DNA from: Candidatus Hermodarchaeota archaeon
Lineage (GTDB): Archaea; Asgardarchaeota; Lokiarchaeia; Sigyniarchaeales; SOKP01
NCBI GenBank assembly: GCA_048885765.1
Contig: JBHLLI010000001.1
Location: forward strand, 2,592-66,591
Direction: 5' to 3'
Length of the DNA: 64,000 nt
Shown here piece after piece: positions 3,137 through 63,697 of this stretch (position 1 is its first letter; each line of letters opens with the position of its first letter). The notes beneath the pieces are model-generated. The model was not told the DNA's origin. It searched no databases and saw nothing but the letters and a program-made list of their open reading frames with translations. A program made the position numbers and the translations under genes.

Positions 3137-3142
3137 CTCCTT

Positions 3143-11778: not shown

Positions 11779-11861
11779 ATGTTTATTTGAAAAAAAAAAT
11801 TGCATTCTATAATTAAAACTCTACAAATTTTTAAGTGTTTTTTATGTATATTCTTAATTTT

Positions 11862-13105: not shown

Positions 13106-13582
13106 TTGTATAAAAGGTGTTTGAGTATTAGTATTGACACAAAAAGTTTCGATAATATTCTCAGCAAGATTATAAAGAGTGAAAGCGGCATTAAAAAAGT
13201 AATTTTGGTTGATAGAACAGGATTAACTATTGCAAGTGTCTCGAAATTCTCCTACTTTCCAGCTGATGTAGATGGGATTGGTGCGATTGCTAGCGCTGTA
13301 TTCTGTGCATCAGAGGAACAAGGGAAGAACCTGGAGCTTGGCAATCTGGAAATAGTGACCAGCGAGTTCTCGGGTGGAAAGATTTTCGCATCTTCTTGTG
13401 GGCCTAAAGGTGTTTTAACCCTAATCTCAGATCCGGAGATAAATATTGGTTTAATTAGACTTATTTTGAAACGATCTGGAGATGAATTAAAAGAAATACT
13501 AGATGAATTCTTATCTGAAACAGTCGAAGTTATGGATAGTGGCTTAGATTTATCAGATCTTGACTCACTTACACCTGATTAA
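13106..13582 (+). CDS. Roadblock/LC7 (MglB-like) domain protein with acidic C-terminal tail
   Basis: 158 aa. 'IKKVILVDRTGLTIASVS...DVDGIGAIASAVFCASEEQGKNLELGNLEIVTSEFSGGKIFASSCGPKGVLTLISD' is a typical Roadblock alpha-beta-beta-alpha-beta-beta pattern. The start codon is uncertain (TTG at 13106 in the ORF track). Confidence 0.8.
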   Translation: MYKRCLSISIDTKSFDNILSKIIKSESGIKKVILVDRTGLTIASVSKFSYFPADVDGIGAIASAVFCASEEQGKNLELGNLEIVTSEFSGGKIFASSCGPKGVLTLISDPEINIGLIRLILKRSGDELKEILDEFLSETVEVMDSGLDLSDLDSLTPD

Positions 13583-13698
13583 TAAACACATATTTCATCA
13601 AAATTACTTTTAATTAAATAACCTAAACCTCTTTATTTATTACATTAGCTAAGAGAAGTTCAATTCTTAATAGTTTAAATAAAAATAAAAAAAATTTT

Positions 13699-15177: not shown

Positions 15178-15313
15178 TTTTAGAACCTTTTTTTAGATAG
15201 AGTATGTAATTGAACGTGGATAAGATATAAAAAGGATTTAGGAATGATTCTTCCCATTTATCAGAAAATGCTCTGAATTTAAAACCAGAAAAAAATAAAA
15301 AAAAAAAGTGGGA

Positions 15314-17098: not shown

Positions 17099-17240
17099 TT
17101 TATGATTATTCGCATATATAAATCTATAATATTCTCTTTTTAATTTAATGGACTGTCATTATTAGTATTTTTAAACTATTTTATAGGGTTAATTACCAAA
17201 AATCACAAAAGTTTTTCAAGAGTATATCTTAAAAAAATTT

Positions 17241-18188
17241 ATGTCATTTGATTTTGTAAAAAAATTGGATTTTGAATCAGAATATTTTGATCTGTATAAA
17301 CTTTCCCAAAGTGCGTATGGCGCCATTGGTAAAGAAAACTCTGGAATGGGGGGAAATGCTGGCTTTATAGATATAGAGGATTACTTGATAATTGTTGATA
17401 CTACTGGGAGTGTAGATGCTGCTAAAGATTTAAAAAAAGCCGCTATCCAATTTACTGAAAAACAGCCTAATTTTATAGTTATTACTCATTATCATATGGA
17501 TCATCTTATGGGGACTTCTTTATTTGATAGAACAATTCAGATTATGACTTCAGATCGTACTCTTAAAAATATTCAAACAGAAGGCAAAAAAAGGATCGAA
17601 GAATTTAAGAATATGAATCTTGCTGAAATGGAAGAATCGCTTAAAAATGAAACGGACAAAGTGAAAAAAAAAGAGATTGAAAATGATCTCATCTTTCTTA
17701 AAACAGTTCGTTCCGATAACTTCGCTCTCCGAGAACCTAATCTTACTTTTAAGGAAGGATGCGTTATATATGGGAAAGGCGAGTCAGTCCATTTACGAAC
17801 CTTTAAAAAAGCTCATACTGATGGAGATGTAATAGTATATATTCCGGAAGAAAAAGTATTATTTGCTGGAGATCTTTTGTTTGCACGAGTGGATCCATGG
17901 TTAGGCTCTGGAAACCCTGAAGGATGGATTGCTGTAAATGAAGAAATAATGACATTTGATTTTAATGTTGTAGTTCCTGGACATGGCAAATTAGCTTCTA
18001 AGGAGCAATTTTCCCTTGAAAATAAATATATTAAAGAAATTCTTGATTTAGTTAAGAAAAAAATTGATGCGGGAGAAGATCCAACCCAAATAAAGCGAGA
18101 GGATTTTTCAGAGGAGTTACAATCCTTTGAAAGTCCCATTTTAGAATGGAATCTTAACTTTCTTGCTGAAATTTTAAAGAAATCCTAA
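17241..18188 (+). CDS. MBL-fold metallo-hydrolase (paralog 1 of 3)
   Basis: 315 aa. 'THYHMDHLMG' (HxHxDH), a later 'AHTDGD' and 'PGHG'. Confidence 0.8.
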   Translation: MSFDFVKKLDFESEYFDLYKLSQSAYGAIGKENSGMGGNAGFIDIEDYLIIVDTTGSVDAAKDLKKAAIQFTEKQPNFIVITHYHMDHLMGTSLFDRTIQIMTSDRTLKNIQTEGKKRIEEFKNMNLAEMEESLKNETDKVKKKEIENDLIFLKTVRSDNFALREPNLTFKEGCVIYGKGESVHLRTFKKAHTDGDVIVYIPEEKVLFAGDLLFARVDPWLGSGNPEGWIAVNEEIMTFDFNVVVPGHGKLASKEQFSLENKYIKEILDLVKKKIDAGEDPTQIKREDFSEELQSFESPILEWNLNFLAEILKKS

Positions 18189-18403
18189 CTTTAATTATTT
18201 TCATTGAACTTTTTAACTAAATTTGTTGTTTCAATATGAATGCACTTTAGAGTTTTAAATATTATAACTATTGAAAGAAATCCTTCGTATAGTTCATTCA
18301 TACGGTATAGTTCAGCTCAAGTTCATGAGATTAATCTATAAATAAATACTAATCTTTAACTCAATTATCTACTCCATTTTAATAAAAATAACTGAAAAAT
18401 ATT

Positions 18404-19246
18404 ATGGATTATAAAAAGACTGACTTCGAATCGGTATATTTTGATCTTTTTGAATTGACAGAAGGAATTTATGCGGCTATCTCTATAAATGATTCTGATG
18501 CTAAGACAAGTGCAGGAATCTTTGATTTAGGGAACTTTTTGATCATTTTTGATACATTATTTTATCCTGGGGCTGCAGTTGATTTATATAAAGCAGGAAA
18601 AGAATTGTGTGATAAAGAACCATCATTTATCGTTAATAGCCATTTTCATGGGGATCATGTATTTGGTAACTGCCTTTTTCCGGATAATGTTCCTATAATA
18701 AGTACTTCTCCTACTGTAAAAAAGATACAAGAAGTTGTTTTTGACCAACTCAAACGCTCTCAAGATATTGCCGAAGAGGAAATTCAAAGACGCAAGGAAA
18801 TGCTAAACTCAGATGATGCTCCATGGGGTAAGCAGGAATCATTAAATGATATTGAATTCAGTAAGATGGTAACAGAGCCAGATTTTAAAATTAAATTACC
18901 AAATTTCTTGATTAATGATAATATTACGATCAATGGTACAAAAAAAACTCTTCATTTAATCGCCTATGGTATTGGCCATACAGAATCTGATATTATAGCT
19001 TATTTTCCAGATGAAAAAATCTGTTTTATGGGGGATCTATTATTTGCTAATTTGGATGATAGTTGGGCTCCAAATGATACTGGAAGATTTAATGCGGCTG
19101 ATCCTTTAAAATTATTCGAGATTTTAAAGAATATATTAGAAATGGATATAGATATATATGTAGCAGGCCATGGAGGAGTATCAACTAAAGATGCCGTACA
19201 AATGAATATGAATTTCATAAAAAAATATTTTATTGACAAACTATAA
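18404..19246 (+). CDS. MBL-fold metallo-hydrolase (paralog 2 of 3, more diverged)
   Basis: 280 aa. 'SHFHGDHVFG', 'GHTESD' and 'AGHG'. Its N-terminus 'FESVYFDLFELTEGIYAAI' is shared with the neighbours. Confidence 0.8.
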   Translation: MDYKKTDFESVYFDLFELTEGIYAAISINDSDAKTSAGIFDLGNFLIIFDTLFYPGAAVDLYKAGKELCDKEPSFIVNSHFHGDHVFGNCLFPDNVPIISTSPTVKKIQEVVFDQLKRSQDIAEEEIQRRKEMLNSDDAPWGKQESLNDIEFSKMVTEPDFKIKLPNFLINDNITINGTKKTLHLIAYGIGHTESDIIAYFPDEKICFMGDLLFANLDDSWAPNDTGRFNAADPLKLFEILKNILEMDIDIYVAGHGGVSTKDAVQMNMNFIKKYFIDKL

Positions 19247-19345
19247 GATAACAATCAATTTCAAAATATCATGTTAAATCTCAATTTTAAATATTAAACT
19301 CATATAATCGATAAAATTTATCAAAACTAAAAAAAAAAAAAAATT

Positions 19346-20293
19346 ATGTTAGATGTAAAAAAACTTGATTTCGAATCTGATTATTTTGATCTCTATAAGG
19401 TTTCGGAATCTGCTTATGCAGCCATTTCACAAGAAGATTCACCTATGGGATCAAACGCAGGTTTTATTGATATAGAGGATTATTTAATCATTATTGATAG
19501 TACATTACATGCTGGAGCTGCAGAAGATTTAAAACGAGCAGTATTAAAATATACCCAGAAGGAACCTAATTTTATTGTGATCACGCATTATCATACAGAT
19601 CATATTGTCGGAAACTCTATCTTTGATAGAAATACACAAATAATCACTTCAGATCGAACCCTAATTAATATCAAAACAGAGAGTAAAAAGTTTTTTGAAC
19701 AATACAGGAATTTTGATATGGAAAAAATTCTTGAACTAGAGGAATCTCTTGAATTTGAAAAAGATGATGAGAAGATCCAAGACATAAAAAATGATCTTAG
19801 ATTTTTAAAAGGTATTCGGACAATAAAAGAAATTCGAGAGCCTAATCTCACATTCAAGATAGGATGTATCATACACGGTAAAGAAAAAAAAGTCCATTTA
19901 CAAACGTTCGAGAAAGCTCATACTGATGGAGATGTCATTGCATACATTCCTGATGAAAAAGTCTTATTTGCGGGGGATCTTTTATTTGCTAATCGTGACC
20001 CTTGGATTGGATCAGGAGATCCTGAAGGATGGTTGTCGGTAAATGAGGAATTGTTGGCCCGTGATTTTGATATCATTGTTCCCGGCCATGGAAATTTAGC
20101 CTCTAAAAAAGAATTTACTTTACAGAACATGTACATTAGGGAAATGATGGATCTCGTTAAAAAACATATTGATGCTGGAAAAGATCCAACCCATATAAAA
20201 CGAGAGGAGTTTTCTAAAGAACTTCATTCATGGAATAGTATAACCCTTGGATGGAATATTAATTTTCTTGCAGAATTTCTAAAAAAATCTTAA
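19346..20293 (+). CDS. MBL-fold metallo-hydrolase (paralog 3 of 3)
   Basis: 315 aa. 'THYHTDHIVG', 'AHTDGD' and 'PGHG'. It is collinear with and clearly the closest paralog of 17241-18188. Confidence 0.8.
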   Translation: MLDVKKLDFESDYFDLYKVSESAYAAISQEDSPMGSNAGFIDIEDYLIIIDSTLHAGAAEDLKRAVLKYTQKEPNFIVITHYHTDHIVGNSIFDRNTQIITSDRTLINIKTESKKFFEQYRNFDMEKILELEESLEFEKDDEKIQDIKNDLRFLKGIRTIKEIREPNLTFKIGCIIHGKEKKVHLQTFEKAHTDGDVIAYIPDEKVLFAGDLLFANRDPWIGSGDPEGWLSVNEELLARDFDIIVPGHGNLASKKEFTLQNMYIREMMDLVKKHIDAGKDPTHIKREEFSKELHSWNSITLGWNINFLAEFLKKS

Positions 20294-50042: not shown

Positions 50043-51113
50043 ATGGAAACCACTCATAAAGTATATTTCAAAAACGCTTCAGATATGTCTGAAATTAAGT
50101 CAAATTCCATAGATTTAATCATAACTTCACCTCCATACCCTATGATTGAGATCTGGGATCCATTATTTTTATCTTTAAATAGTGAGATTAAGCAAGCACT
50201 TGAAGAAGGGAAAGGAAAGAGTGCTTTTGATCTAATGCATCAAGAATTGGATAAGGTATGGATAGAAGTAACACGAGTTTTAAAGGATGGAGGAATGGTA
50301 TGTGTTAATGTTGGAGATGCAACAAGAAAAATCGGGAATAGTTTTCAATTATTTCCTAACCATATTAAAATTGCAAATTCATTTCTAAATAAAGAATTCA
50401 TTGAATTACCTAGTATATTATGGAGAAAACCTACAAATAGTCCTAATAAGTTCATGGGATCAGGTATGCTCCCACCTCATGCCTATATTACTCTTGAGCA
50501 TGAATACATCTTAATATTCAGGAAAGGCAATGCTAAAAGAGAGATTCCTTCTAAATCAGAAACTAGATATAATAGTGCGTATTTTTGGGAGGAGAGGAAT
50601 TCATGGTTTTCAGATATATGGATGGATATTATAGGAGCTTCCCAAGAGATTAATAATAATAAGAAAGACAGTGATGTGAGAAAAAGATCAGCAGCTTTTC
50701 CTTTAGAACTTCCATATCGATTAATTAATATGTTTTCGCTTTATGGAGATACAATATTGGATCCGTTTTGGGGTACAGGAACAACATCATTAGCAGCAAT
50801 GATATCTAGCAGAAATTCAATTGGATATGAGATTAGCTCGGAATTTAGTAAAATATTTAAGAAAAACATAAAAAACCTCAAGCAATTAAATCTTGACATT
50901 AATAAAAATAGAATTAATCAACACGTCGATTTTATTAAGAAGTACAATAAAAAAGGTAAACAGATTAAGTATAATTCAGTTTATTATAAGTTACCTGTCG
51001 TAACTAAACAAGAAATCGATATTTTGTTATATTCAATAAAAGATGTCAGTGAAAATAGGAATGAATTTAAGCTTACATATGAAAAATTCAAACTTGACAA
51101 TAAACCTTACTAA
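50043..51113 (+). CDS. beta-class N4-cytosine/N6-adenine DNA methyltransferase (SPPY type)
   Basis: 356 aa. Motif IV 'DLIITSPPYP' is near the N-terminus and motif I 'ILDPFWGTGTT' is near residue 240, which is the PF01555-like order. Confidence 0.8.
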   Translation: METTHKVYFKNASDMSEIKSNSIDLIITSPPYPMIEIWDPLFLSLNSEIKQALEEGKGKSAFDLMHQELDKVWIEVTRVLKDGGMVCVNVGDATRKIGNSFQLFPNHIKIANSFLNKEFIELPSILWRKPTNSPNKFMGSGMLPPHAYITLEHEYILIFRKGNAKREIPSKSETRYNSAYFWEERNSWFSDIWMDIIGASQEINNNKKDSDVRKRSAAFPLELPYRLINMFSLYGDTILDPFWGTGTTSLAAMISSRNSIGYEISSEFSKIFKKNIKNLKQLNLDINKNRINQHVDFIKKYNKKGKQIKYNSVYYKLPVVTKQEIDILLYSIKDVSENRNEFKLTYEKFKLDNKPY

Positions 51114-52930
51114 ATATGTGATTCTAGAAACTTATAAGCAATAGATAAAAATGCATCTTCGACGTTTTCACCAGTTTTGGCAGAAGTCATGATATAATGA
51201 ATATTGTACTTGTCAGCTATTCTTTTCAAATCTGATTCTGTAATTTGAATTTGTTCAGTTAAATCTGATTTATTCCCAATTAAAATTATTTTAGTATATG
51301 GTTCAGTAAATTTATAAATTTCCTCATACCATGTATTAACATTCTTTAAAGTGTCTGAACGGGTCCTATCAACAGTAATAAAAGCGAAATTGGCACCCTC
51401 ATAAAACTTTTTTCTGTAAGGCGCCATTTTAGGCATCTGACCTCCAATATCCCAAATTACGAATCTTATTTTTGTATCCTCGCCTAATTTTACTAATTTT
51501 TGTGAAATATCTACTCCTATTGTTGAATGATAAACTTCTCTAAAGATATTTTGCACATATCTGTTAATTAATGATGTTTTTCCCACGGCAAAATCTCCAG
51601 TTAGAATTAATTTTAAATGGTATTCTCCAGTTGGTATTTTACCATCTTTAGTTTTAGATAAAATCTTTATAATCTCCGGAATTTCGAGAGAAACTTCTTT
51701 ATTCTCTCCTAACATTAATTCAACCTTTGAAGCTACATGTTCAGAAAAAACTCTCAATTCTGTATCTGTAGTAAAAAGGTTAGAAATTGTTAATAATATC
51801 GACCTCGGACCCATAGAACAATATGCAAATTTTTTTTCCTCTATAGTAGTTATATTAAAAAAATTACTAACATCACTAAATTCCTTTTTAATTCTCTCTA
51901 TAAATGAATCAACTGTTACAGCAATTGCTCCTAATATCTCTTCATCTCCAGCATCTTTTTTACTTTCAGATGTTATCACAAAACCTTCCGGGTCGCTAAT
52001 AATTACCCCTATAATCCCTTCCACATTATTAATATAATTCAATAATAACGTTCTTAAGCGTTGTTCTAAAGAACTTATTCTTGTGGTTGGTTTTTCTGGT
52101 TCTTTTGTATGAATTTGAGGAAGTAGTTCCTCTTTTAAATTCTCAACATCTTTTAACTTATTTTTTATATCATGATATTTCTTATAAAATTCCATTCCAA
52201 TAGGGTCTTCTCCGAGTTCTCTACATATTTCCACAATTTTCTTATAGAAAAAGTCTAATTTTTCAAAATTAATTGTAACAATAGCTTCTTCAAACTGATT
52301 AAGCAATAACTGTTTATTTTTTAAAGTTTTTAATATTGGAGACATCTCATCAGACATTTCCAAATTATTAATAATAATTCGAATTATTTCGTCTCTATTA
52401 TTGGAATTAAGAGCACTTAGAGAATAGGCCTTGATACCTAAGATATCTTCTATTTGCTTAGAATTTATGGAATTTTCTAATTCCCATTTATTCCCAATAG
52501 CAATTTTATTAGCGTATGGAGTTTCTTCTTCTATTTTCTTGACAAAAGATTTACTTTTTTCTACATTTTCTGTAGTAGAATCTGTAATTATAAGAACAAG
52601 ATCACTTCCTTTCATGAAATTATTCCATAAGAAACCAATCTCTGATTGACCAGTAAAATCGCGTATCAGAAAATTTACGCTTCCAATTTTTAATTTAGAA
52701 ATATCCGCATTAATAGTTGGATCATGGTCTAAAGGTATATTTTTAGTTCTTATAAGGTCAATAATTGTTGTCTTTCCAACAGAATCGTATCCAACTAAGG
52801 ATATTATTGGGGATAAATTATCTTGTATTGAAGCAATTACCTCATCAAATTTTTTAAAATTATTAGGTTCAGTTGATAATGGTAAAATCTCTTTAAAATA
52901 TTTCAGAAATTTCTCCTTACACTTACTCAA
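51110..52930 (-). CDS. multidomain small-GTPase protein: GTPase 1, helical linker, Roadblock/LC7, Rab/Arf-like GTPase 2; the frame stays open 87 codons further upstream
   Basis: GTPase 1 has 'GYDSVGKT', 'DFTGQ' and 'GNKWE'. Roadblock is 'VEGIIGVIISDPEGFVITSES...GAIAVTVDSF'. GTPase 2 has 'GDFAVGKT', 'WDIGGQ', 'GNKSDL' and 'SAKTG'. The ORF track starts at TTG 52930, but the same frame has no stop up to 53191. Confidence 0.8.
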   Translation of the reverse strand: MSKCKEKFLKYFKEILPLSTEPNNFKKFDEVIASIQDNLSPIISLVGYDSVGKTTIIDLIRTKNIPLDHDPTINADISKLKIGSVNFLIRDFTGQSEIGFLWNNFMKGSDLVLIITDSTTENVEKSKSFVKKIEEETPYANKIAIGNKWELENSINSKQIEDILGIKAYSLSALNSNNRDEIIRIIINNLEMSDEMSPILKTLKNKQLLLNQFEEAIVTINFEKLDFFYKKIVEICRELGEDPIGMEFYKKYHDIKNKLKDVENLKEELLPQIHTKEPEKPTTRISSLEQRLRTLLLNYINNVEGIIGVIISDPEGFVITSESKKDAGDEEILGAIAVTVDSFIERIKKEFSDVSNFFNITTIEEKKFAYCSMGPRSILLTISNLFTTDTELRVFSEHVASKVELMLGENKEVSLEIPEIIKILSKTKDGKIPTGEYHLKLILTGDFAVGKTSLINRYVQNIFREVYHSTIGVDISQKLVKLGEDTKIRFVIWDIGGQMPKMAPYRKKFYEGANFAFITVDRTRSDTLKNVNTWYEEIYKFTEPYTKIILIGNKSDLTEQIQITESDLKRIADKYNIHYIMTSAKTGENVEDAFLSIAYKFLESHI

Positions 52931-53429
52931 TTCTTTTTTAATGGCAATAAAATCATCTTTTGCATCATTAATAAATAAAAAGAGTAATTTGAAGTCTTTT
53001 TCAATAAAATAACTAATTCTGTATGTCTTATAATCTTGAAATTGGATTGTTTCAATTTCATCAGAAAAAAATTCCTTTATTAGAGTCTCATAAGCCTCTT
53101 CTTCTAATACTTTACTAAATTGTCTTTCATAGATAAGTAAGGTCTCCTTGTAAATGCAAACACGCCTTAAAATTATATAGCACCTTATTTTTTATTTTTT
53201 CTCTGAAAATAAAAAGAAAATCACATCTCAACTTAATTAATGGTAAAAGTATCATATAAAATTTTATTTAATAAATCAAAAAAAATACCTAAAAATAAAA
53301 AACAGTATTTTTATTAATTACAAAATTAATTTCATAGATTAATTAAAAAGTTATTAATCTAAGAATACACAGGGTTTAGTAGTGTATCATACTATTTTTA
53401 CAACAAGAGAATAAAAAAGTCGATTTAAA

Positions 53430-56400
53430 ATGCGAAATAAAAGAACAAATCTAAAATATAAAACAAAATTCCTTGGAATTCTATTATTCACAATAATTCT
53501 ACCAACAATTCTTAGTACACCATTATTTACCGATTTTAGTGGAAAGATAAACAATGATAACACGGAAAAAGATCCTATGGAAAAATTATCTCTCTCTAAT
53601 CCTTCAAGTAATCTTCCTCACGCAGATTATTTTCTTTATTATAAAATTATAACTATTGATCATACAAAAGTTAATGGTTCAGTTGATCATCAAGACTTTC
53701 CTGTTTTAATTTCAATTATTGATGCGGATTTGGATGACAAGGCTCAGTTCGATGGTGATGATATAGCATTTGCTAATGGTACTGCCTGGTTAGATTTTGA
53801 AATAGAATTATATAATCCAAGTTATAGTGCTACTGAAGCTCAACTTATAGCGTGGGTTCGGGTTCCTTTATTATCTACTTCTATTGATACTAAATTATTC
53901 ATGTTTTATGGAAATTCGACTATGAGTAATCAAGAAAATCCTACAGGAGTCTGGGATACTAATTATAAAGGTGTCTGGCATCTAAAGGAAGATCCAGGTA
54001 TTGGAAATCCGGGAGATATTAAAGATTCGACGATTAACAGCAACCATGGAACTGCTATTATGATGGGTTCAGCAGATCAAGAACTAGGACAAATAGATGG
54101 AAGTATGGGTTTTGATGGAAACAGTGATCCTGATTATATCAGTATAGGAAATGTTGGTCCTGAAATAAAAACAATTGAGTTTTGGATGAAAGCGACTACT
54201 CTAGGAAGTTCGAACTCTTATAATACGGGGTACCATAGCCCAACAGCAACAGGAGACGATTATAATCAATGGAATAATCCTACTGGTGGTTATACTAATG
54301 ATGGTAATAGAGCATCAGAGTGGACTAATTATGAGGATCAAGATTGGTACAATTTTGGTTTTACCATACCATCTGGGGCTAGTATTGATGGTATTGAGGT
54401 TTCCATTGATGCAAGTACTTCAGTCCAATTCGAATCAACAGGTTGTAGAGTTAGACTTTCCTGGAATGGGGGATCTGGTTATTATACAAACTATAAAACT
54501 CAAAGTTGGTCGAGCACTTACGATTCATATAGAACAGTTGGCGGTGCATGGGATACATGGGGGAGGTCTTGGTCTTCATCTGATTTTTCAAATACCAATT
54601 TCAGAGTGAGATTAGAAAAAACAGGTTCTTACTCGGCAAGCTTAAGAGTTGATCACATAAGAGTTATTGTTTATTATTCAATAGAGTCAGACACAGCCAT
54701 AATGGATTTAGATGGTACAGATCAAATATCAATTGATGCTATTAGTGGGGATATAAAACCAATTAGTTTCCCAGGCAGTACAGCAATATATGTTGATGGA
54801 ATAATCGGTTCAACAATAACAACAGGAAGCTGGTATCATGTAGCTATTACTGATACGACTGGATTAAGTGTTTCAGCTTTAAATCTCGCTAGAAATTCAA
54901 CAGAATATTTTAACGGTGGAATTGATGAATTTCGTCTCTCAAATATAGTTCGTTCAGCGGATTGGATAGCTACTGAATACAATAATCAAAAAGATCCTAG
55001 CAATTTCTATTCTGTTGGGACAGAAAGTAACCCATTTACTGACGTTCAGATCGATGCTATCGATTTATATGGTAATCCAGTACCAAATGTGAACATTTCT
55101 ATATACAAACATAATGATTTAATAAGAAGTGATATAGCAAACGAAAATGGTACTGTTTTATTTGAAAATATTTTGTCAATAGAATATAGTTATAATTTTA
55201 CAGTTTCTATGACATCAAATATCGAACCGTATAATACAATAATAATTAATAGAACATCAGAATCAATCCTAATTTCTGGAACATCTCAAATTATTAATTT
55301 AATTTGTAACATAAGTAGAAATATCTTTAATGTAGTCGATATAGATGGAGTTCCCGTCGATTCTGGATGGGTAGTAGTTGGTAATAGTTCAAATCAAATT
55401 CAAAATTGTACAATTGATAATAGTGGACAAGCTACCTTTCGATGGTTAGAAACTATTCCTTATGATTATAATTATACAATATGGTACCGTGATTCTATTT
55501 ATAATCCGAAAAAAATCATAGTAGGATCAGGAGATATAGTGACACCAAATTCTGAAGTAAATGTCTCAGTTATTTTAACGACTATTAATTTTACGGTATT
55601 AACTTATGAAGCTCCTTTTACGCCAATTGATGGAGTAAAAATAATATTAGATAATCTTAACTCGGGTGAAAATATAGTCAATTTAACTTCCGATTTAAAC
55701 GGAAACGCAGTACTTAGATGGTTGGATTCTTCCATCTTAGGTATTAACTCCAATTATTCTTTAAGACTTAGTTTCTATGGACAATACTGGGATTTTGAAA
55801 TACCAGAACTTTTGACAGGAAGGGTTGGAAACACCAATTTTACCGTAACTGGTAAAGCTGCTTATACTTTAAATATTCATTTTGCTCCTGCGGAATTAGA
55901 AAATTTGGAAACCAATTTAATATCATTGAATCCCACTAATACTATTTTAGTTGAATGGGGCTTAAAAATAAGTTTAAGAGCTTTATTCAATGTTACAAAT
56001 GTACCATCGGGATCAGGAGTTCCTATTGGACCTACTTATGCAGATTCAATGTCATATCATATATTTGAAGGAACAACGTTAATTCTTTCTAATATAATGC
56101 CTAAACAAAATGACTATATTGGAAGACATAAGGGTGAAATTGATACTACTGAGTTAGAAAGTGAAACACCTTATATACTTAAATTAACTGCTCAAAAATC
56201 CGGATATGTCTTACCTCCAGAAGTAATAATGTCATTATACCTTAATGAAAATGATTTAATATTAAACCAATCACAAAATGATGATTCAACCCAATCAATA
56301 TATTGGGAAGAGAGTGTTGAAATGTCAGTAAATCCTTATGGACAAATAACTGAATATTCTTCTTTAGAATATAATATCTACAACATCATTTATGAAACAC

Positions 56401-59400
56401 CATTCAGATTTTCAATTCCAGATATCTCAAATGATTGGAATTTATCGCAGATTACTTTTAATATATATAATATTTCATGGAATGCTTTACCAGATGACAT
56501 AAACATTAGTATAGCTTTGAATGATTATGGAATCTTTGAAGTTTTTAATACTGGTAATCATAATGGTCACGATTATGCCCAAGGTACATGGACAGGTATA
56601 AAGCTTAATATAGATAAAAGAAGTCCCTCTAATGATAATAATTTTGAGTTCACCATTGGAGGAACTTTTGATAGTACAATTGATGTTATAGTTGATGCTA
56701 TTTTTATCAGGGACAAAATTAATGTTCAATATACAAGATTTAACATAACCGAGACTTTGTCTCTTTTAAATGCAGCTGAAGGATGGGTAATAAAAAATAT
56801 CACTTTTGAACTCTTTAATTGTTATAATACTTCCAATTGGCATTTAATAAATCCATTATCTGATGTTAATTTAAATATTTCCACTAATGAAGGGATTAAA
56901 TATTCATTAGATTCAGGAAGTTCTGGATTTGGCAAATTAAATATCGATGACCGAATTATTTATCCTTTAGATAATCAATTCCTATTCACTGTTGAGGCAA
57001 ATCCTGAAATTATGTTTGATGTAGTAATTAAAGTTGAGTATATTCAAGAATTTTACCAAAATTATTATCTGGAGACATTGAATATATCAAAAACCGAACG
57101 TAATATTGCAGGTATTTTTCAAATCAATGCTAATGAGAATGATTGGATTGAAGATTCAGCTCTGCTATTAATTAATGAAATTTCTGATGGGATTGATTAC
57201 TTTCTTCCATCAGAATTGTCAATGACTATTACAATTGGAGGAACCACTTATAACATAGTTGATATTGTTTCAGGGCAAGGATTATTTTCATTACAAGGTT
57301 TAAATAAAGAGACGATATACCAAGCCGTTATAAATACAAATCAACCTACCATTTTTAATCTTCAATTTAAGATAGACTATTCAAGGACCAATATTTATGA
57401 GACTAGAGGTTCAGTCAGTTATACTATTTTAGAAAATCCTGCTATATTTGGAACAGTTCAATATAATGAGGATTTGGAATGTTATTCACAACTCATAAAT
57501 ACAACAATACTCAATACTGATGATTATACTATAAGATTCACTATTCTTAAAGAGAACTATGCCTCCACAATAAAAGATTTAGAATTGTCAGTGTTGGCTC
57601 GTTTAACGTTACTAAATGGAACATCAGGTTTCTTTAGAAAAATTGAAAATATATATTTTGGAGATGCGGTTAATTTTACATTTTTATATACGGATTCAGT
57701 GAAAGGAACTAAAATTACTGATTTGACAGCAGGTTATTATGTATGGGAGAAATACGATGAAGAGGGAGAAATAATTGCAGATGGACAGGGAACTTTAATC
57801 ACTAATGTTGATCAATTATATACTTTAGACTTTAATACAGAAAATTTAACAATTGGGGAGTATTTTCTAATTGTTTCTATAGGCAAAAAAAATTATGAAT
57901 ATAAAACTGCCTTGATTTCATTGACTATCAAGAAAAGAATAATTGGGTATCTTCTCAACGAGGGAAATAACCAAATAAATGTTAAAAAAGGAGAGATAGC
58001 AGTTTTACAATTAGAATTAACAGATCCTTCAAGAGGTGGCATTCCATTACAAAATACTACAGTTCTAATAAATATAAGGGGTACTGAATATGAATTTGAA
58101 GTAGGCGGACCTGGTATTTATATTTTTAATTTTCATACTGGCAATATAGATACATTCTTTAGTCCAAAAACATTTACGGGAAGAATTAATATTACAAAAG
58201 AAAATTATGTCTCTGAGGAATTTAGTGTTACTATTGTTGTCGCAATGGACGAGATTTTTCCAGGTATACCAACTTTTTATTTCTTATTAATACTCTCTGT
58301 AGCTCTTGGGATAGCAGTTAGTATTGTTTCATATCGAGCATATAAACGCGCTAAGATTCCAACATTTGTGAAAAAAGTAAGAGATATGAAAAAAACTATT
58401 GATGGAGGTAAATCAATTCCGGATACGCTTTTATATCGCGATAAAGAAGCATTCATTGGCGAAATTATTAATAATAAATGGCGAAAACTTGGTTTATCAT
58501 TAGAAGAGATATTTGGAATTACTATCGAAAAGGATAAAAAAGAACAAAAAGTCAAAAAAAAGATCTCTGGGACGATAAGATCTCAAGACAAAAAACCTCT
58601 CGGAATATTATTCATGAAATGGGATGAAAAAATTGGTACTGAAATTCTGGCTAAATATCCCGAAGCTATTAATATCACACCAAAAAGTTTGATGCAAGTA
58701 TATAGTACACATGAATATAGTGGTGAGAAAGGGGTTATTACCCTAATTACAGAATCGCTAAATATCTTATCATATTATACTGGAGCCGAGAAAGGATATT
58801 ATCTCGTACTACTTTTGAATTTAGATGACGATCCTGATTTTTATGAAGCGGGAATAGTTGAAATTGCTCGTGTAATTTTAGAGAATTTAAAAGATGAGTC
58901 TTATTTACGACTATTACCTTCACTATTTCAGCGTTTATCAGTATATCCCTCACTTAGTGGAGAAGAAATCCTAATTTACCATTATCAGAATGGTGTTAAA
59001 CGTGCAATAATTAACGCTTTAAGAGATGATGGGATAATATCTAAATCTGAATTGATGATTTGGCTTAAAGATAGATATACTGAAAGTTTTTTTGATATAG
59101 ACGCAATCTTGATGGATCTTATTAAAATGGAGATTATTAAAGTTGGTTCAATTAAAGGGGTACCTTCTGAGCTCATCTTTTTTATAAATGACCTTTTTAC
59201 GCTTCGAACACCTCCCACTATTTTATTAGATGATCCGATGAACCGCGGTTTACCTTCCCAATTTGTAAAAGAATATCAGGAAAAAGTTAGAGCTTTTTTC
59301 CAAGATTACAAGCCAACTGAAGAAGATAATATTAAATTAGTTGATATCTTAATCGATCCTCAGGTATATGAGACTTTAAAATTACTACGGATAGCGATTG

Positions 59401-59684
59401 TTACAAAACAAGACCTTGAAAAGCTTCGAAAGAAAGGAGTTCATGATATCAACAGAGTCTTAAAATTACTTTGGGATAATAAGATGATTATAGTTTTCAA
59501 TGATAAAATGAACAATGAATATTACGCATTACTCACTGACGTATATGTTGATTTTATCTTTCCAAAATATCTTTTAAGTGCTGTTAAAACTGCCTATGAG
59601 CAAAAATCAAGAGTTAAGAAAGTCCTGTTTGAATACCTACAAATTCTTGAAGATGCTTATTTTGAGTTAAAAAAATCGGAATAA
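53430..59684 (+). CDS. giant single-pass surface protein: DUF2341-like + LamG-like lectin N-terminus, many Ig/CarboxypepD_reg-like repeats, TM, cytoplasmic longin-like + winged-helix module
   Basis: 2084 aa with signal/anchor 'FLGILLFTIILPTIL'. 'YYKIITIDHTKVNGSVDHQDFPVLISI' is DUF2341-like. 'GVWHLKED...DSTINSNHGT...GSMGFDGNSD' plus 'GGIDEFRLSNIVRSADWIATEYNNQ' is LamG-like. There are 'DLYGNPVPNVNISIY'-type repeats. The TM 'FYFLLILSVALGIAVSIVSY' lies near nt 58275-58335. The tail is 'KRAKIPTFVKKVRDMKKTI', followed by a ~440-aa cytoplasmic region homologous to ORF 3143-4270. Confidence 0.8.
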   Translation: MRNKRTNLKYKTKFLGILLFTIILPTILSTPLFTDFSGKINNDNTEKDPMEKLSLSNPSSNLPHADYFLYYKIITIDHTKVNGSVDHQDFPVLISIIDADLDDKAQFDGDDIAFANGTAWLDFEIELYNPSYSATEAQLIAWVRVPLLSTSIDTKLFMFYGNSTMSNQENPTGVWDTNYKGVWHLKEDPGIGNPGDIKDSTINSNHGTAIMMGSADQELGQIDGSMGFDGNSDPDYISIGNVGPEIKTIEFWMKATTLGSSNSYNTGYHSPTATGDDYNQWNNPTGGYTNDGNRASEWTNYEDQDWYNFGFTIPSGASIDGIEVSIDASTSVQFESTGCRVRLSWNGGSGYYTNYKTQSWSSTYDSYRTVGGAWDTWGRSWSSSDFSNTNFRVRLEKTGSYSASLRVDHIRVIVYYSIESDTAIMDLDGTDQISIDAISGDIKPISFPGSTAIYVDGIIGSTITTGSWYHVAITDTTGLSVSALNLARNSTEYFNGGIDEFRLSNIVRSADWIATEYNNQKDPSNFYSVGTESNPFTDVQIDAIDLYGNPVPNVNISIYKHNDLIRSDIANENGTVLFENILSIEYSYNFTVSMTSNIEPYNTIIINRTSESILISGTSQIINLICNISRNIFNVVDIDGVPVDSGWVVVGNSSNQIQNCTIDNSGQATFRWLETIPYDYNYTIWYRDSIYNPKKIIVGSGDIVTPNSEVNVSVILTTINFTVLTYEAPFTPIDGVKIILDNLNSGENIVNLTSDLNGNAVLRWLDSSILGINSNYSLRLSFYGQYWDFEIPELLTGRVGNTNFTVTGKAAYTLNIHFAPAELENLETNLISLNPTNTILVEWGLKISLRALFNVTNVPSGSGVPIGPTYADSMSYHIFEGTTLILSNIMPKQNDYIGRHKGEIDTTELESETPYILKLTAQKSGYVLPPEVIMSLYLNENDLILNQSQNDDSTQSIYWEESVEMSVNPYGQITEYSSLEYNIYNIIYETPFRFSIPDISNDWNLSQITFNIYNISWNALPDDINISIALNDYGIFEVFNTGNHNGHDYAQGTWTGIKLNIDKRSPSNDNNFEFTIGGTFDSTIDVIVDAIFIRDKINVQYTRFNITETLSLLNAAEGWVIKNITFELFNCYNTSNWHLINPLSDVNLNISTNEGIKYSLDSGSSGFGKLNIDDRIIYPLDNQFLFTVEANPEIMFDVVIKVEYIQEFYQNYYLETLNISKTERNIAGIFQINANENDWIEDSALLLINEISDGIDYFLPSELSMTITIGGTTYNIVDIVSGQGLFSLQGLNKETIYQAVINTNQPTIFNLQFKIDYSRTNIYETRGSVSYTILENPAIFGTVQYNEDLECYSQLINTTILNTDDYTIRFTILKENYASTIKDLELSVLARLTLLNGTSGFFRKIENIYFGDAVNFTFLYTDSVKGTKITDLTAGYYVWEKYDEEGEIIADGQGTLITNVDQLYTLDFNTENLTIGEYFLIVSIGKKNYEYKTALISLTIKKRIIGYLLNEGNNQINVKKGEIAVLQLELTDPSRGGIPLQNTTVLINIRGTEYEFEVGGPGIYIFNFHTGNIDTFFSPKTFTGRINITKENYVSEEFSVTIVVAMDEIFPGIPTFYFLLILSVALGIAVSIVSYRAYKRAKIPTFVKKVRDMKKTIDGGKSIPDTLLYRDKEAFIGEIINNKWRKLGLSLEEIFGITIEKDKKEQKVKKKISGTIRSQDKKPLGILFMKWDEKIGTEILAKYPEAINITPKSLMQVYSTHEYSGEKGVITLITESLNILSYYTGAEKGYYLVLLLNLDDDPDFYEAGIVEIARVILENLKDESYLRLLPSLFQRLSVYPSLSGEEILIYHYQNGVKRAIINALRDDGIISKSELMIWLKDRYTESFFDIDAILMDLIKMEIIKVGSIKGVPSELIFFINDLFTLRTPPTILLDDPMNRGLPSQFVKEYQEKVRAFFQDYKPTEEDNIKLVDILIDPQVYETLKLLRIAIVTKQDLEKLRKKGVHDINRVLKLLWDNKMIIVFNDKMNNEYYALLTDVYVDFIFPKYLLSAVKTAYEQKSRVKKVLFEYLQILEDAYFELKKSE

Positions 59685-59793: not shown

Positions 59794-60654
59794 TCATTTA
59801 CAATCTTCGGCTTGCTGGAGATTAATTTTGACAAAAGCCTCTTCCTGAAGATTCCGTTGTTCTGATTTTACAGACCTATTTACTTGGTGAAGATGTCTCA
59901 TTGCATTTTTTTTTCCTTCTTTAATATTTTCGATTAATTCTTCTTTACTTTCTCCACCAGAGATAACAAGAGCTGTTTGAAAAGTGTGTTCAGGTTCTAT
60001 CGTCATAAATTCAATTTGTAATGCAGATAAAATCTCTCCCGGTTTTTGGTATAGCTTATTAGAAAGATTCATTTTGTCCTGATCAACGATAAAATCTTTG
60101 GTTAGACATGATTCATAGTTGGTGGATTTAGAAATGGGTGAAAATCCTCCATACAGACCAGTAGAATCATATTGATAAATTACATCATTTTTTTCATCGT
60201 ACCCAGATAGATCATTATCATAACCCACAAGACCATTGATATCAAAGTCAAATACAAAATACATTGAGAAGTCTTTCAACGCATAATCTGAAATATTTTT
60301 TAAAGTGAAAAATGTACTTACATATGGAACTTTTGGTGGGTTGAAAATATCCTTGTAAACACGAACAAATTCTTTCTTTTCGAACGGAACTGGCGGGATT
60401 TTTTTTTCTTTTACCATCTTTTTTAAGTACTCTGTAATATTGAAATCTAAAGTGATTCTACTAATCTGTGTCCCTGTTCTGGTATTAACCATATTATATA
60501 TTGGTGTGGGTTCTATATTTTTGAGAATTACGGGGATTGTACCAATCTTTTTACCTTCTAGTTTAAAACTAAACCAAGGACCAGTTAAATCTTGTTCGCT
60601 AAGATATATGAGATATCTTCCTTTATAAGTGAGTTCTTTTATTGAAAATCCCAT
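59794..60654 (-). CDS. hypothetical protein
   Basis: 286-aa ORF with non-repetitive, globular-looking composition. No motif recognised. Confidence 0.5.
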   Translation of the reverse strand: MGFSIKELTYKGRYLIYLSEQDLTGPWFSFKLEGKKIGTIPVILKNIEPTPIYNMVNTRTGTQISRITLDFNITEYLKKMVKEKKIPPVPFEKKEFVRVYKDIFNPPKVPYVSTFFTLKNISDYALKDFSMYFVFDFDINGLVGYDNDLSGYDEKNDVIYQYDSTGLYGGFSPISKSTNYESCLTKDFIVDQDKMNLSNKLYQKPGEILSALQIEFMTIEPEHTFQTALVISGGESKEELIENIKEGKKNAMRHLHQVNRSVKSEQRNLQEEAFVKINLQQAEDCK

Positions 60655-60818: not shown

Positions 60819-62564
60819 TTATTCATTTTCTTTTGCTTCTTTCCTTAATGCTCTTTTCAGAACTTTTCCGACTGTAGTTAAGGGTAGCGAATCTCTAAAT
60901 TCCCAAATTCTTGGATTCTCATATTTTGAGAGATGTTCAGAAGCATATTTTTTTAAGTCTTCTTTTATTTCTTCACTTTGTTGGACACCTTCTTTAAGTT
61001 GGACAACTGCTTTTACAATCTCGCTACCTGGGCGTTCTGGATCTTTAAGACCTATTATAGCAACCATTTCAACATTAGGATGCTTAGTTAAGATATCCTC
61101 AACATGAACACTATAAACTTTATATCCACTGACAATTAACATGTCCTTTGTTCGATCAACAATTGTAATAAATCCCTCCTCATCCATTACACCTACATCA
61201 CCAGTATGAAACCATCCATCAATAATTGTTTTCACATTTGCTTCTGGCTTGTTATAATATCCTTTTGTAACCTGAGGCCCTTTACAAATAATCTCCCCAG
61301 GTTTACCAAGTTCAACTTGTTCTCCTGTTTCAATATCTACAAGTCTTATCTCAGTATCTGGAACAGGTAACCCGACTGTACCCACCCTTTTCTTACCATA
61401 GTATGGATTCATTGTGAGTATGGGGCTTGTTTCGGTCATACCATATACTTCAAGCACTTTACTTTTTGCTTGCATATTATCCTCAAAATCATTGATAGCT
61501 TCTGCTGGAAACGGGGCTGCTCCTGAAATATAAACTTCAATATCCTTTAAAGTCTCTTTAGGAATCTTTTTCGCTTTTGGATTATTTTTAATTGCTAAAT
61601 ACAGTGTTGGCACATTAACCATTATTTGAGGTTTTTTATCTATCATTTCCTCAATTAAATGGTTAGTATCTCTTGGATTTGCTATTAAAACTTGAGTAGC
61701 TGAGAGATATAAAGTAACCATACTCATTGCTAATCCTGCCAGATGGAAAAGGGGGAATGCGGATAGATTATTAGCTTCTTCCTGTTCTTCAGATGTCCTA
61801 TCTATCCATGTGGAGATTTGAACAATATTACTAATAATATTTGCATGCGTGAGTTCTGTTCCCTTAGGTAATCCTGTTGTACCTCCAGTATATTGAAGAA
61901 GAGCTAAATCTTTATCATTATCTATAACAACAGGTTTTAATTCAATTTCAGTTTTAATAACTTCATTAAAATCTAAAACTCTTTTTCCTTCGTAAGGGAC
62001 AACTTTACCTTTTGGAACCTTGCCAATCATTTTCCCTAACGCTACTTTCAATTTTGATAAACCCATATAATCAGCAATATTGGTTGTAATTACACATTCT
62101 AATTTGGGCACATCATCAAGAACTTGCATTAGAACTTTTTCATAAAAAGCATCTAGAGTGACAAAAAATTTTGCATCACTATCATTAATTTGATAGGCAA
62201 TCTCAGTTGGACTCATCAATGGAGAACATCCTGAAGCAACACCTCCAGCTAATAATGTTCCCAGATGGGCTACCAAATACTGAGGACAATTAGCTAAATT
62301 AATTGCAACACGATCCCCTTTCTTAAGACCATTCATTTGTAGAAAAGTTGCGAAGCGATGTACATAATCTCTAAGTTCACTAAAGGTTATTGCACACTCC
62401 ATGAAATAACAAGCCACGCGATCAGGATATTTTGCCAATGATTTATCAAATAGTTCTCCAAGACTCTCTGTAGGGTACGTTAAAGTTTTCTTTACATGAT
62501 CATCATACGATTTTAACCAAATTTTTGAATCATAAGGAGATTGTTCTGTTTGTATTTTAAACAC
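60819..62564 (-). CDS. AMP-forming acyl-CoA ligase (long-chain fatty acid-CoA ligase-like)
   Basis: 581 aa. The AMP-binding motif is 'LQYTGGTTGLPKG', followed by 'YGMTETS', 'GWFHTGDVG' and 'GKVLKRALR'. Confidence 0.88.
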   Translation of the reverse strand: MFKIQTEQSPYDSKIWLKSYDDHVKKTLTYPTESLGELFDKSLAKYPDRVACYFMECAITFSELRDYVHRFATFLQMNGLKKGDRVAINLANCPQYLVAHLGTLLAGGVASGCSPLMSPTEIAYQINDSDAKFFVTLDAFYEKVLMQVLDDVPKLECVITTNIADYMGLSKLKVALGKMIGKVPKGKVVPYEGKRVLDFNEVIKTEIELKPVVIDNDKDLALLQYTGGTTGLPKGTELTHANIISNIVQISTWIDRTSEEQEEANNLSAFPLFHLAGLAMSMVTLYLSATQVLIANPRDTNHLIEEMIDKKPQIMVNVPTLYLAIKNNPKAKKIPKETLKDIEVYISGAAPFPAEAINDFEDNMQAKSKVLEVYGMTETSPILTMNPYYGKKRVGTVGLPVPDTEIRLVDIETGEQVELGKPGEIICKGPQVTKGYYNKPEANVKTIIDGWFHTGDVGVMDEEGFITIVDRTKDMLIVSGYKVYSVHVEDILTKHPNVEMVAIIGLKDPERPGSEIVKAVVQLKEGVQQSEEIKEDLKKYASEHLSKYENPRIWEFRDSLPLTTVGKVLKRALRKEAKENE

Positions 62565-62716: not shown

Positions 62717-63697
62717 TTATAGGTTTTCTACAACTCTATAGGCAATGTATAAGAACGCATCATTAACATTTTCACCGGTTAAGGCCGATGTCATAATGTA
62801 ATGAAAACCAAATTGTTTTGCCATTTCCTTTATTTCTTCTTCGCTTATTACAATCTCATCTTTTAAATCTGATTTGTTTCCAACAATTACTACAGGAATA
62901 TTTCTTTTTACTGATTTTTGAAGGTCATTATACCATTTTTCAACACTTTTCAAGTTATTTCGCCGAGTTCGATCAATTACTATAAAAGCAGCATTAGCTC
63001 CGTTATAAAATTTTACTCTATTCAAATCAAATTGACGTTGCCCTCCAATATCCCAAATTATAAAATTTATCTTTGTTTTTTCACTTAAAAGTACTGTTTT
63101 TTTGCTTAATTGGACCCCAATAGTACTAATATAATCTTCCTCAAATCTATTTTCTACAAATCTTCTAATTAAAGATGTCTTACCCACAGAAAAATCCCCA
63201 TTCAGGATAATTTTGTTTGAATACTCACCTACTAAATCGGGAAGTCTACCTCCTCGAGATTTTGACAACGCTTTTATTATTTCTGGAATTTTTGGTGAGA
63301 CAAATTGATTTCCTGTTAAGATCAATTCTATCTTAGAAGCTAAATGTTCAGAGTATACTTTCAATTCAATTTCAGTGGCATTTTTATCTGCTACTGTAGA
63401 TAATATTGAATTTGGGCCCATTGAACAAAATACAAACATTTTATCTCCTGTTTCTGTTATATTAAAGAAACTGTCAGTTTTTCCAAATTCAACTTTAATT
63501 CTATCTATATATGTATCAAGCATAGCAGAAAGAGCCCCAATTATCGCATCAGATTCTTCTTCATTTTCTTCTTTTGACTCGGAGGCGATGATAAATCCGT
63601 TTCTATCGCAAATAGCTACTCCTAAAAGACCATCTACTTCATTAAAATAATTTTTTAAAAGTTCTTTTAGTAACTCCGTACTTGGAAGGCGTTCCAT
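62717..63697 (-). CDS. Roadblock/LC7 domain fused to Rab/Arf-like small GTPase
   Basis: 326 aa. N-terminal Roadblock is 'VDGLLGVAICDRNGFIIASES...GALSAMLDTY'. The C-terminal GTPase has 'GDFSVGKT', 'WDIGGQ', 'GNKSDL' and 'SALTG'. It is collinear with the C-terminal two-thirds of 51110-52930. Confidence 0.85.
   Translation of the reverse strand: MERLPSTELLKELLKNYFNEVDGLLGVAICDRNGFIIASESKEENEEESDAIIGALSAMLDTYIDRIKVEFGKTDSFFNITETGDKMFVFCSMGPNSILSTVADKNATEIELKVYSEHLASKIELILTGNQFVSPKIPEIIKALSKSRGGRLPDLVGEYSNKIILNGDFSVGKTSLIRRFVENRFEEDYISTIGVQLSKKTVLLSEKTKINFIIWDIGGQRQFDLNRVKFYNGANAAFIVIDRTRRNNLKSVEKWYNDLQKSVKRNIPVVIVGNKSDLKDEIVISEEEIKEMAKQFGFHYIMTSALTGENVNDAFLYIAYRVVENL

Follow-up and report, generated by a model that had tools for sequence, protein, structure and literature searches.

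Asgard archaea encode dozens of small GTPases together with longin and roadblock proteins. In MK-D1, which has 74 small GTPase genes, a structural survey noted that, as a rule, these genes share no operon with longin or roadblock genes, so that partners are hard to match (PMC10933270). The described proteins closest in fold to the one considered here are NPRL2 and NPRL3, which consist of a longin domain and wHTH (winged helix-turn-helix) domains in tandem (PMC3747258, PMC3521125). NPRL2-like longin proteins have been reported from Asgard archaea; some also carry an NPRL2-type domain at the C-terminus, and fusions to signalling domains are frequent (bioRxiv 10.1101/2020.10.19.343400); the full NPRL2-like organisation occurs in most Thor and a few Loki metagenome-assembled genomes (MAGs), with fusions to two-component domains (bioRxiv 10.1101/2020.10.19.343400; Liu et al., Nature 2021), and longins resembling FLCN and SMCR8, with GP and Arg motifs, are also known from this group (PMC12290439). 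Here we examine a 64,000-nt, AT-rich stretch (GC ~0.30) of contig JBHLLI010000001.1 from Candidatus Hermodarchaeota archaeon (GCA_048885765.1; host lineage Lokiarchaeia, Asgard archaea), referred to below as the window. A first-pass annotation had called a giant lectin-like surface protein whose cytoplasmic end is a fused copy of a stand-alone module. The open reading frame (ORF) is indeed present—2084 residues at 53430–59684 on the + strand—and encodes a predicted type I surface protein whose cytoplasmic module resembles NPRL2 and NPRL3 in domain order. We give a probability of about one half to the reading that this module is a receptor-tethered longin platform for neighbouring small GTPases.

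The cytoplasmic part of the giant protein begins after a transmembrane (TM) helix at residues 1613–1635 (58266–58334, +), which follows a conserved pre-TM motif, PGxPxFYF, and was placed by reading of the sequence and by helix 15–42 of the second structural model described below; the single TM helix near the C-terminal part had been recognised before, at slightly shifted coordinates (58275–58335). Next comes a conserved basic juxtamembrane segment of 87 residues (1636–1722; 58335–58595, +; isoelectric point, pI, 10.1; net charge +13) with the motif [KR]IPxFVKKxRxMKK...LLY...KW..LGLSL, and then the module itself. BLASTP of the last 484 residues against the 375-residue product of the ORF at 3143–4270 returned E = 5e-32 with 26% identity over 377 columns, and the alignment spans residues 123–477 of the tail (1723–2077 of the giant protein) and 2–373 of the smaller protein, i.e., it runs end to end. 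The proposed match to the whole of that ORF thus holds, and the last ~362 residues of the giant protein are its true paralog. Two details of the original proposal changed, however: the cytoplasmic region of ~440 residues is not one module but the juxtamembrane segment plus the ~362-residue module, and the 375-residue gene is not the module's stand-alone counterpart, since a family of 367–371 residues is considerably closer (~60% identity, compared with 26% for the paralog in the window).

These proteins belong to a large family for which neither Pfam nor NCBIfam has a model that recognises either module copy in the window; the tail of the giant protein has no Pfam match at E ≤ 10. The 375-residue protein has 397 homologs, the best 120 of which measure 341–378 residues (nearly all 374–378) and are 70–100% identical, so that, among Lokiarchaeial proteins, it counts as highly conserved. 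A different branch holds the tail of the giant protein, which is 55–88% identical to the C-termini of numerous large and for the most part fragmentary proteins. An exhaustive profile search recovered 415 module representatives at 50% clustering, most of them stand-alone proteins of 355–385 residues; in some the module is C-terminal in proteins of 1330–2548 residues and in others it is N-terminal and followed by C-terminal extensions. Named family members come from Lokiarchaeia, Helarchaeota, and Sigynarchaeota.

The relation between module and surface protein emerged from a scan of species-representative genomes, which returned 309 relatives; ORF analysis of 79 loci gave 101 units, 36 fused and 65 split. 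In fused units the module is joined to a surface protein of 1300–3000 residues, the products measuring up to 3009 residues, and the TM helix lies ~100 residues before the module. In split units, a module gene of 364–378 residues stands behind a same-strand gene for a ~1200–1900-residue homolog of the window ectodomain, and this upstream surface protein has its TM helix 103–110 residues from its own C-terminus. Split junctions are extremely tight: among 53, we counted 29 TAATG overlaps and 12 in which the stop codon is directly followed by ATG (gap of −1 or 0 nt in these 41); in the remainder, a few nt separate the two genes (20 nt in one case). The codons for the C-terminal Glu-Gly-Gly of the upstream surface proteins (GGTGG/GGAGG) form a Shine-Dalgarno-like site 7–9 nt before the module ATG, and the arrangement as a whole has the classic appearance of translational coupling. 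A single tail consensus, PGxPxFYFLLI...YR...[KR]IPxFVKKxRxMKKxIKGxKSISxSLLYPxK...KWxxLGLSLxxILG, is common to both designs; the juxtamembrane segment is conserved in 88 fused and split tails, and the boundary between the two designs always falls after the same conserved 85-residue juxtamembrane tail. The Rosetta-stone link suggested by the first-pass annotation is therefore stronger than proposed: at a single, exactly placed boundary, members of one module family are either fused or linked by translational coupling. In a quick neighbour-joining tree, the split forms of 364–378 residues make up one clade nested among fused lineages, with the split 375-residue paralog as outgroup, a topology that calls for two or more fusions or fissions. 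In the loci analysed the module is either fused or translationally coupled at one boundary, and we conclude that it is the cytoplasmic partner dedicated to surface-protein tails of this class.

Two other origins of this pattern were considered and set aside. An assembly or frameshift artefact behind the fusion is ruled out by more than 20 complete fused homologs in other MAGs, and is countered also by the proper start codons and Shine-Dalgarno-like sites of the split forms. Nor are the split forms likely to have arisen through stop-codon read-through: the two frames differ at most junctions (29 of 53 are TAATG), and the spacings vary.

To what fold does the module belong? An AlphaFold2 model built on a 69-sequence alignment (mean predicted local distance difference test, pLDDT, 88.5; predicted template modelling score, pTM, 0.78) shows, in order, a longin/roadblock domain, a linker made of helices, two winged helices of canonical form with further helices between them, and a pair of helices at the C-terminus. 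By DSSP assignment, the longin/roadblock-type domain (residues 1725–1818; 58602–58883, +) has the order beta-beta-alpha-beta-beta-beta-alpha and both winged helices have the order alpha-beta-alpha-alpha-beta-beta, the first occupying residues 1844–1927 (58959–59210, +) and the second residues 1964–2043 (59319–59558, +); the C-terminal helices continue to 59681. When the TM helix and linker were included, an independent second model reached pLDDT 87.3 and pTM 0.81. Foldseek against the PDB placed SEACIT/GATOR1 chains at the top for the first model and ranked matches alike for the second—yeast Npr2 (8adl_S) at E = 9.6e-5 and 4e-5, respectively, with 9o5d_D, 9v0j_A, 7t3a_C, and 6ces_N (human NPRL2) among the further top matches—and the alignments cover the whole module. 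Entries and chain lengths point to NPRL2 for 9o5d_D, 9v0j_A, and 7t3b_B, and to NPRL3 for 7t3a_C and 8fw5_C. Next in rank were Fuzzy-Inturned, DENND1A, Mon1-Ccz1, MglB/MglC, and Ragulator subunits, and also ESCRT-II Vps22. As modelled, the module has the NPRL2/NPRL3 domain order. The longin and two-wHTH reading made earlier by eye thus finds agreement in the models, in Foldseek, and in weak HTH matches of homologs, and NPRL2/NPRL3 as the specific fold relative is an addition to it.

The second model also bears on the tail. Its juxtamembrane helices (residues 1641–1700) were predicted at pLDDT 87–96, and pTM rose from 0.78 to 0.81 when the 110 residues of TM helix and tail were added to the module input; because of this high confidence and the rise in pTM, the models suggest that the juxtamembrane tail lies packed against the module. 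Electrostatically the two are complementary, the tail being basic (+13) and the module acidic (pI 5.2, net −9).

Weak, sub-threshold Pfam matches to ArsR/HTH_5, HTH_20, HTH_24, TrmB, MarR, and TFIIE_alpha were found in a few of 68 diverse module members and confirm the winged helices themselves. The same matches would suit a different role, in which the module is a wHTH transcription regulator sequestered at the membrane and freed on a signal by proteolysis (fused form) or dissociation (split form); the Joint Genome Institute annotates one homolog as an ArsR-family regulator, and behind the 375-residue module comes a protein whose N-terminus resembles TrmB. We consider this role improbable. 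Winged helices 1 and 2 and the module as a whole are acidic (pI 5.0, 5.3, and 5.2), unlike DNA-binding wHTH domains; none of the ArsR, TrmB, or MarR matches is significant; the neighbourhood of the units holds no conserved protease gene; and the best full-length fold matches are to NPRL2/3, in which the winged helices mediate protein contacts.

We next turn to the genes around the module, where small GTPases recur. Divergent from the giant gene, across a shared intergenic region at 53192–53429, lies a multi-domain GTPase gene, here called gtpA (51110–53191, −), with a longin-like N-domain, an Arf/Rag-like G domain, a Roadblock domain, and a Ras/Rab-like G domain (Pfam Arf 2.2e-27, Robl_LC7 9.7e-4, Ras 2.5e-48), in agreement with the longin-GTPase-Roadblock-GTPase order called before. 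Its canonical-start ORF is 51110–52930, and the frame stays open to 53191. The gtpA orthologs in relatives (597–684 residues, 49–64% identical) start further upstream, and those of 645–684 residues carry an extra longin-like N-domain; the window also encodes this domain (52931–53191, −), upstream of the first canonical start. No ATG, GTG, or TTG occurs in the open frame from 52931 to 53191, and the upstream frame contains AGGTG followed by ATA (53176)/ATT, which suggests that gtpA uses a non-canonical start or that a point change has occurred there. On the other side, convergent with the giant gene, lies a conserved ORF of 286 residues (59794–60654, −), which has 65–87% identical orthologs at the same position in 13 loci, always right after the fused receptor gene, and is better conserved than the receptor; it matched nothing in Pfam, NCBIfam, or PDB sequences. 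Beyond it is a 326-residue protein with roadblock-like and Ras-like GTPase domains (gtpB; 62717–63697, −; Pfam Ras 1.1e-41, MAPKK1_Int 3.8e-3).

This order is conserved. Divergent gtpA orthologs stand beside fused genes of 2084–2673 residues in 11 fused loci; in 11 of the 13 loci with the 286-residue ORF, it directly precedes a full-length roadblock-Ras GTPase of 324–330 residues (67–84% identity to gtpB), which lies ~1.15 kb downstream of the fused gene. The adjacency of giant and GTPase genes is thus found in many relatives, with orthologs of gtpA, the 286-residue ORF, and gtpB placed identically in as many as 13 loci. Across the wider family, a small-GTPase gene was found within 1.5 kb of 25 of the 43 units that could be assessed on both sides (15 of 20 fused, 10 of 23 split). 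Distances were measured from unit ends—the fused gene, or the surface gene plus module gene—and GTPases were detected by BLAST with the two GTPases of the window, such that these counts are lower bounds. All 22 upstream GTPase genes are divergent. In a further arrangement, an Arf-like GTPase of 344–355 residues with N- and C-terminal extensions sits between two split units, convergent with one and divergent from the other. The neighbouring GTPases themselves carry longin/roadblock domains. For scale, the 74 GTPases of MK-D1 make up ~2% of its genes, so adjacency by chance would be expected in a few percent of cases.

Gene neighbourhood of this kind could also have arisen without any regulatory tie. 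The module might act as a structural or sorting adaptor that caps surface-glycoprotein tails and links them to the cytoskeleton, to ESCRT-like sorting, or to each other, so organising the cell-surface coat, with GTPase genes nearby through loose co-regulation or inherited gene order. The tandem winged helices resemble ESCRT-II subunits too (2zme_A at 4e-3, and 1u5t_A, in Foldseek); the most abundant split subfamily has no GTPase neighbour; the module is found with TPR scaffolds as well; the 375-residue family is coupled to a ~640-residue protein with a TrmB-like N-terminus and not directly to a GTPase; and longin domains are known to act independently of GTPases, e.g., in SNAREs (PMC10933270). 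Against this, GTPase genes are strongly enriched beside the units and in several arrangements (divergent, 597–684 residues; divergent or convergent, ~345 residues; convergent, ~327 residues), the neighbour GTPases bear longin/roadblock domains, which typically pair with such domains, and the best fold matches are GTPase regulators. We hold an adaptor without GTPase regulation to be a possible, if rather unlikely, explanation.

The reading of the module as a receptor-tethered longin platform, to which we gave a probability of about one half, can be put as follows. In the split form, the module would bind the juxtamembrane tail of the surface protein; in either form, the membrane-tethered longin domain would serve as a docking platform through beta-sheet-edge pairing, as in NPRL2-NPRL3, MglB, Ragulator, Rag-Ragulator, and Mon1-Ccz1. 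Its clients would be the neighbouring small GTPases, which would dock via their own longin/roadblock domains and so be tethered at the receptor. If the ectodomain were engaged or clustered, say by a ligand or the surface of a partner cell, this might then be coupled to GTPase location or nucleotide state, and the coupling could equally run inside-out as outside-in. The GTPase coupling proposed in the first-pass annotation is partly supported: a longin fold is predicted, the similarity to the stand-alone ORF is significant, and adjacency to GTPase genes is conserved.

A number of observations weigh against such a platform. Foldseek TM-scores are only 0.18–0.27 and E-values modest; the NPRL match thus lies in domain order and fold rather than in rigid superposition, the relative orientation of the domains being different. 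Alignments of 69 and 68 module sequences compared by hhalign with human NPRL2 (a sequence verified against 6ces_N) gave a probability of 0.3%, and phmmer and hmmsearch against the PDB found no sequence match for the module. The NPR2 (PF06218) and NPR3 (PF03666) families have no match in the 375-residue protein, and neither is among the 25 families listed of the 52 Pfam families matched by 68 module members. Some N-terminal modules are joined to SIR2-like and TPR domains, or to TPR alone, without a membrane protein (P0281 and P0317, adjacent genes of Helarchaeota, and P0294), and on this evidence the module may be a general adaptor. The loci are related by descent, such that synteny counts are not independent, and within 10 kb of the largest split subfamily (a 367-residue module with a ~1430-residue surface protein) there is no GTPase gene. 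Finally, no longin column reaches 60% Arg plus Lys across the 68 diverse members.

This last point bears on what a platform could do. Conserved longin residues among these members are P13, G15, W21, D22, G26, P34, H51, G58, S71, Y72, and G75 (module numbering), and because no longin column is conserved as Arg or Lys, an arginine finger of the NPRL2-R78/FLCN type is, as far as the alignment reveals, absent. The beta4–beta5 loop that holds R78 in NPRL2 presumably reads TG-x-E/G in the module, as placed through secondary-structure correspondence to human NPRL2. NPRL3 is not known to have a finger either, so a missing finger excludes NPRL2-type catalysis and not the fold class. Given the lack of a conserved arginine, the module is more likely to be a scaffold, a protein akin to guanine nucleotide exchange factors (GEF-like), or a co-regulatory platform than a GTPase-activating protein (GAP) of the NPRL2 type. 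Least probable of all the roles we weighed is that of a true GATOR1-type GAP, with the module as an NPRL2 ortholog whose arginine finger stimulates GTP hydrolysis on a Rag-like neighbour. The domain order and best fold matches are those of NPRL2/3, the neighbour GTPases combine G and roadblock domains in Rag-like designs, and other Asgard proteins are reported with NPRL2-like and FLCN/SMCR8-like longins, a GP motif, and an Arg finger (PMC12290439; bioRxiv 10.1101/2020.10.19.343400); the module, however, has no conserved Arg or Lys anywhere in its longin domain and no profile similarity to NPRL2, and no DEPDC5-like partner was seen.

The giant protein starts with a hydrophobic signal or anchor segment at residues ~14–32 (53469–53525, +; the first TM-like window in a hydrophobicity scan begins at residue 14), followed by an acidic ectodomain of 1580 residues (pI 4.3). 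With 33 NxS/T sequons in the ectodomain and one in the cytoplasmic part, and with a positive-inside tail, the protein is predicted to have type I topology. A DUF2341-like segment at residues 108–175 (53751–53954, +) matches PF10102 at E = 1e-4, just under the Pfam cut-off (22.5–23.1 bits against 23.4), and an approximate ConA/LamG-like lectin region (53967–54989, +) is weak in this protein, with a partial Laminin_G_3 match at residues 488–514 (E = 0.0076; 16.8 bits against a cut-off of 27.6). The domains named in the first-pass annotation therefore fall below Pfam cut-offs in the window protein and become clear in its homologs: the ectodomain of L008 matches Laminin_G_3 at 1.8e-55 (187.7 bits) and DUF2341 at 5e-21 (75.3 bits), and other homologous ectodomains match Laminin_G_3 at 4.9e-15 and 7.5e-12, with L012 (56.4 bits) and L001 (46.1 bits) above threshold. 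Because homologous ectodomains score clearly for these domains, "lectin-like surface protein" seems a reasonable label. The rest of the acidic, sequon-rich ectodomain (54990–58265, +) probably consists of beta-sandwich repeats, judging from weak Big_1, CarboxypepD_reg, and SpaA matches in the window protein and its homologs. Complete fused homologs of the giant protein, of 2087–3009 residues, are present in many other MAGs. A PGF-CTERM/archaeosortase signal, which the pre-TM motif PG[FIM]PxFYF (58245–58290 and homologs) resembles, was rejected, as a conserved tail of at least 85 residues follows the TM helix; an NCBIfam search of the giant and first-locus proteins gave no match to a PGF-CTERM model.

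The paralogous 375-residue module (3143–4270, −) belongs to a separate locus near the start of the window, where its start directly abuts the stop of a 555-residue gene (4271), so that this first locus is read as having the split design. Three tandem surface TM proteins of 555, 577, and 1241 residues (4271–11669, −), with the tail motif HFKYPP[MT]VRKIRKLKKKV, form one array with it, and the same array of surface proteins and 375-residue module occurs in two relatives, L084 and L085. A search of the window's ORFs for the pattern [KRHQ][IYLV]Px[FMHTV][VI][KR][KRND][VIAST][RK] returned four and no others, namely those of the giant protein and of these three surface proteins, in each case a few residues past the TM helix, bearing out the common post-TM motif that had been noticed earlier. 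The C-terminal halves of the 555- and 577-residue proteins (4271–7655, −) are almost identical, with long identical stretches from CNLTFDYQKKIDRFTTISWNQDCEK to the TM helix, which indicates a recent tandem duplication or gene conversion. Directly downstream of the module lies a gene for a 644-residue protein (1202–3136, −) with a TrmB-like wHTH N-terminus (Pfam TrmB 3.7e-4) and, by eye, an extended helical part and a stretch rich in Pro and Gln; in L084 (11145–13085) and L085 (11148–13058) the same position is held by orthologs of 646 and 636 residues, respectively. A Roadblock/LC7 gene (13106–13582, +; Robl_LC7 4.8e-10) lies 1–2 kb from the 375-residue family in the window as well as in L084 and L085, and in L085 it adjoins an Arf/Gtr1_RagA GTPase. 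Next to the Roadblock gene in the window are two NosD/beta-helix proteins (13699–17098, −) and three paralogs of metallo-beta-lactamase fold (17241–20293, +).

Several further features of the loci deserve mention. An AMP-binding (acyl-CoA synthetase-like) gene (60819–62564, −) is inserted in the window between the 286-residue ORF and gtpB, which are adjacent in relatives. The gtpA orthologs of relatives match the 326-residue roadblock-Ras GTPase at 51–60% identity over their C-terminal halves, and gtpA accordingly has the look of a fusion between a longin-Arf-like unit and a second copy of that smaller GTPase. Four loci (L008, L011, L021, and L026; ~3100–19300) contain two consecutive fused genes for proteins of ~2650 residues, only the first of which adjoins the divergent multi-GTPase gene. 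Two contigs with typical Lokiarchaeial receptor and module genes, L022 and L066, are labelled as bacterial MAGs (Nanopelagicaceae and Hyphomicrobiales) and have probably been mis-binned.

What these loci offer, then, is a set of repeatedly conserved, concrete pairings of a specific longin module, a membrane receptor tail, and neighbouring GTPases, and with it, among the archaea most closely related to eukaryotes, a candidate connection between receptor and GTPase that can be put to the test, as well as a prokaryotic setting in which the NPRL2/3 (GATOR1) architecture may be placed. Extending the platform reading well beyond the single locus, we can tentatively picture a pathway leading from a lectin/adhesin-like glycoprotein through an NPRL2/3-like module to roadblock-bearing Rag/Arf-like and Rab/Ras-like GTPases, in which the logic of the GATOR1-Ragulator platform would already operate at the cell surface of Lokiarchaeia and the NPRL architecture would predate eukaryotes. 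We rate this broader picture as possible but doubtful; were it true, the pathway would serve, for example, in sensing contact with syntrophic partners or in controlling protrusions.

How does the module compare with described systems? NPRL2 and NPRL3 (Npr2 and Npr3 in yeast), which belong to GATOR1/SEACIT, the complex that acts as GAP for RagA/Gtr1, share with it the longin domain plus tandem wHTH domains, supply its best full-length PDB fold matches, and are likewise associated with roadblock-bearing GTPases. They differ in that the lokiarchaeial module has no detectable sequence or profile similarity to them and no arginine finger, has two winged helices where NPRL2/3 have two to three, and is fused or coupled to a type I glycoprotein of the plasma membrane, whereas NPRL2/3 reside in a soluble complex with DEPDC5 on lysosomes. 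For the NPRL2-like Asgard clusters (asCOGs) reported previously, to which the module family may belong, the papers that could be searched mention neither fusion nor coupling to giant surface proteins, nor a conserved juxtamembrane tail, nor GTPase synteny. Searches of the accessible full texts likewise turned up no account of a surface protein paired with an NPRL-like module, and none of the way in which giant surface proteins and this family are coupled, of their conserved tail, of the fusion/fission pattern, or of the GTPase synteny. With longin and roadblock platforms in general—MglB-MglA, Ragulator-Rag, Mon1-Ccz1, Fuzzy-Inturned, and DENN—the module shares its core fold and the genomic association with small GTPases. 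Ragulator, in particular, anchors roadblock-bearing Rag GTPases to a membrane, but does so through the lipidated LAMTOR1, as opposed to the predicted single-pass surface glycoprotein of the lokiarchaeial system. Among prokaryotes, the closest analogy in terms of a parts list is the actinobacterial conservon CvnA-D, with a membrane sensor, a roadblock protein, a DUF742 protein, and a Ras-like GTPase (PMC13343842, PMC13621833); by contrast, the putative lokiarchaeial sensor is a giant lectin-like glycoprotein, its genes are divergent and not arranged in one operon, and neither HATPase/HisKA nor DUF742 was matched in the giant protein, the module, or their neighbours. Longin platforms and Asgard NPRL2-like proteins are thus already known, and the module would not be categorically new; judged by its gene architecture, what appears to be new is the receptor-tethered form of an NPRL2/3-like longin platform.

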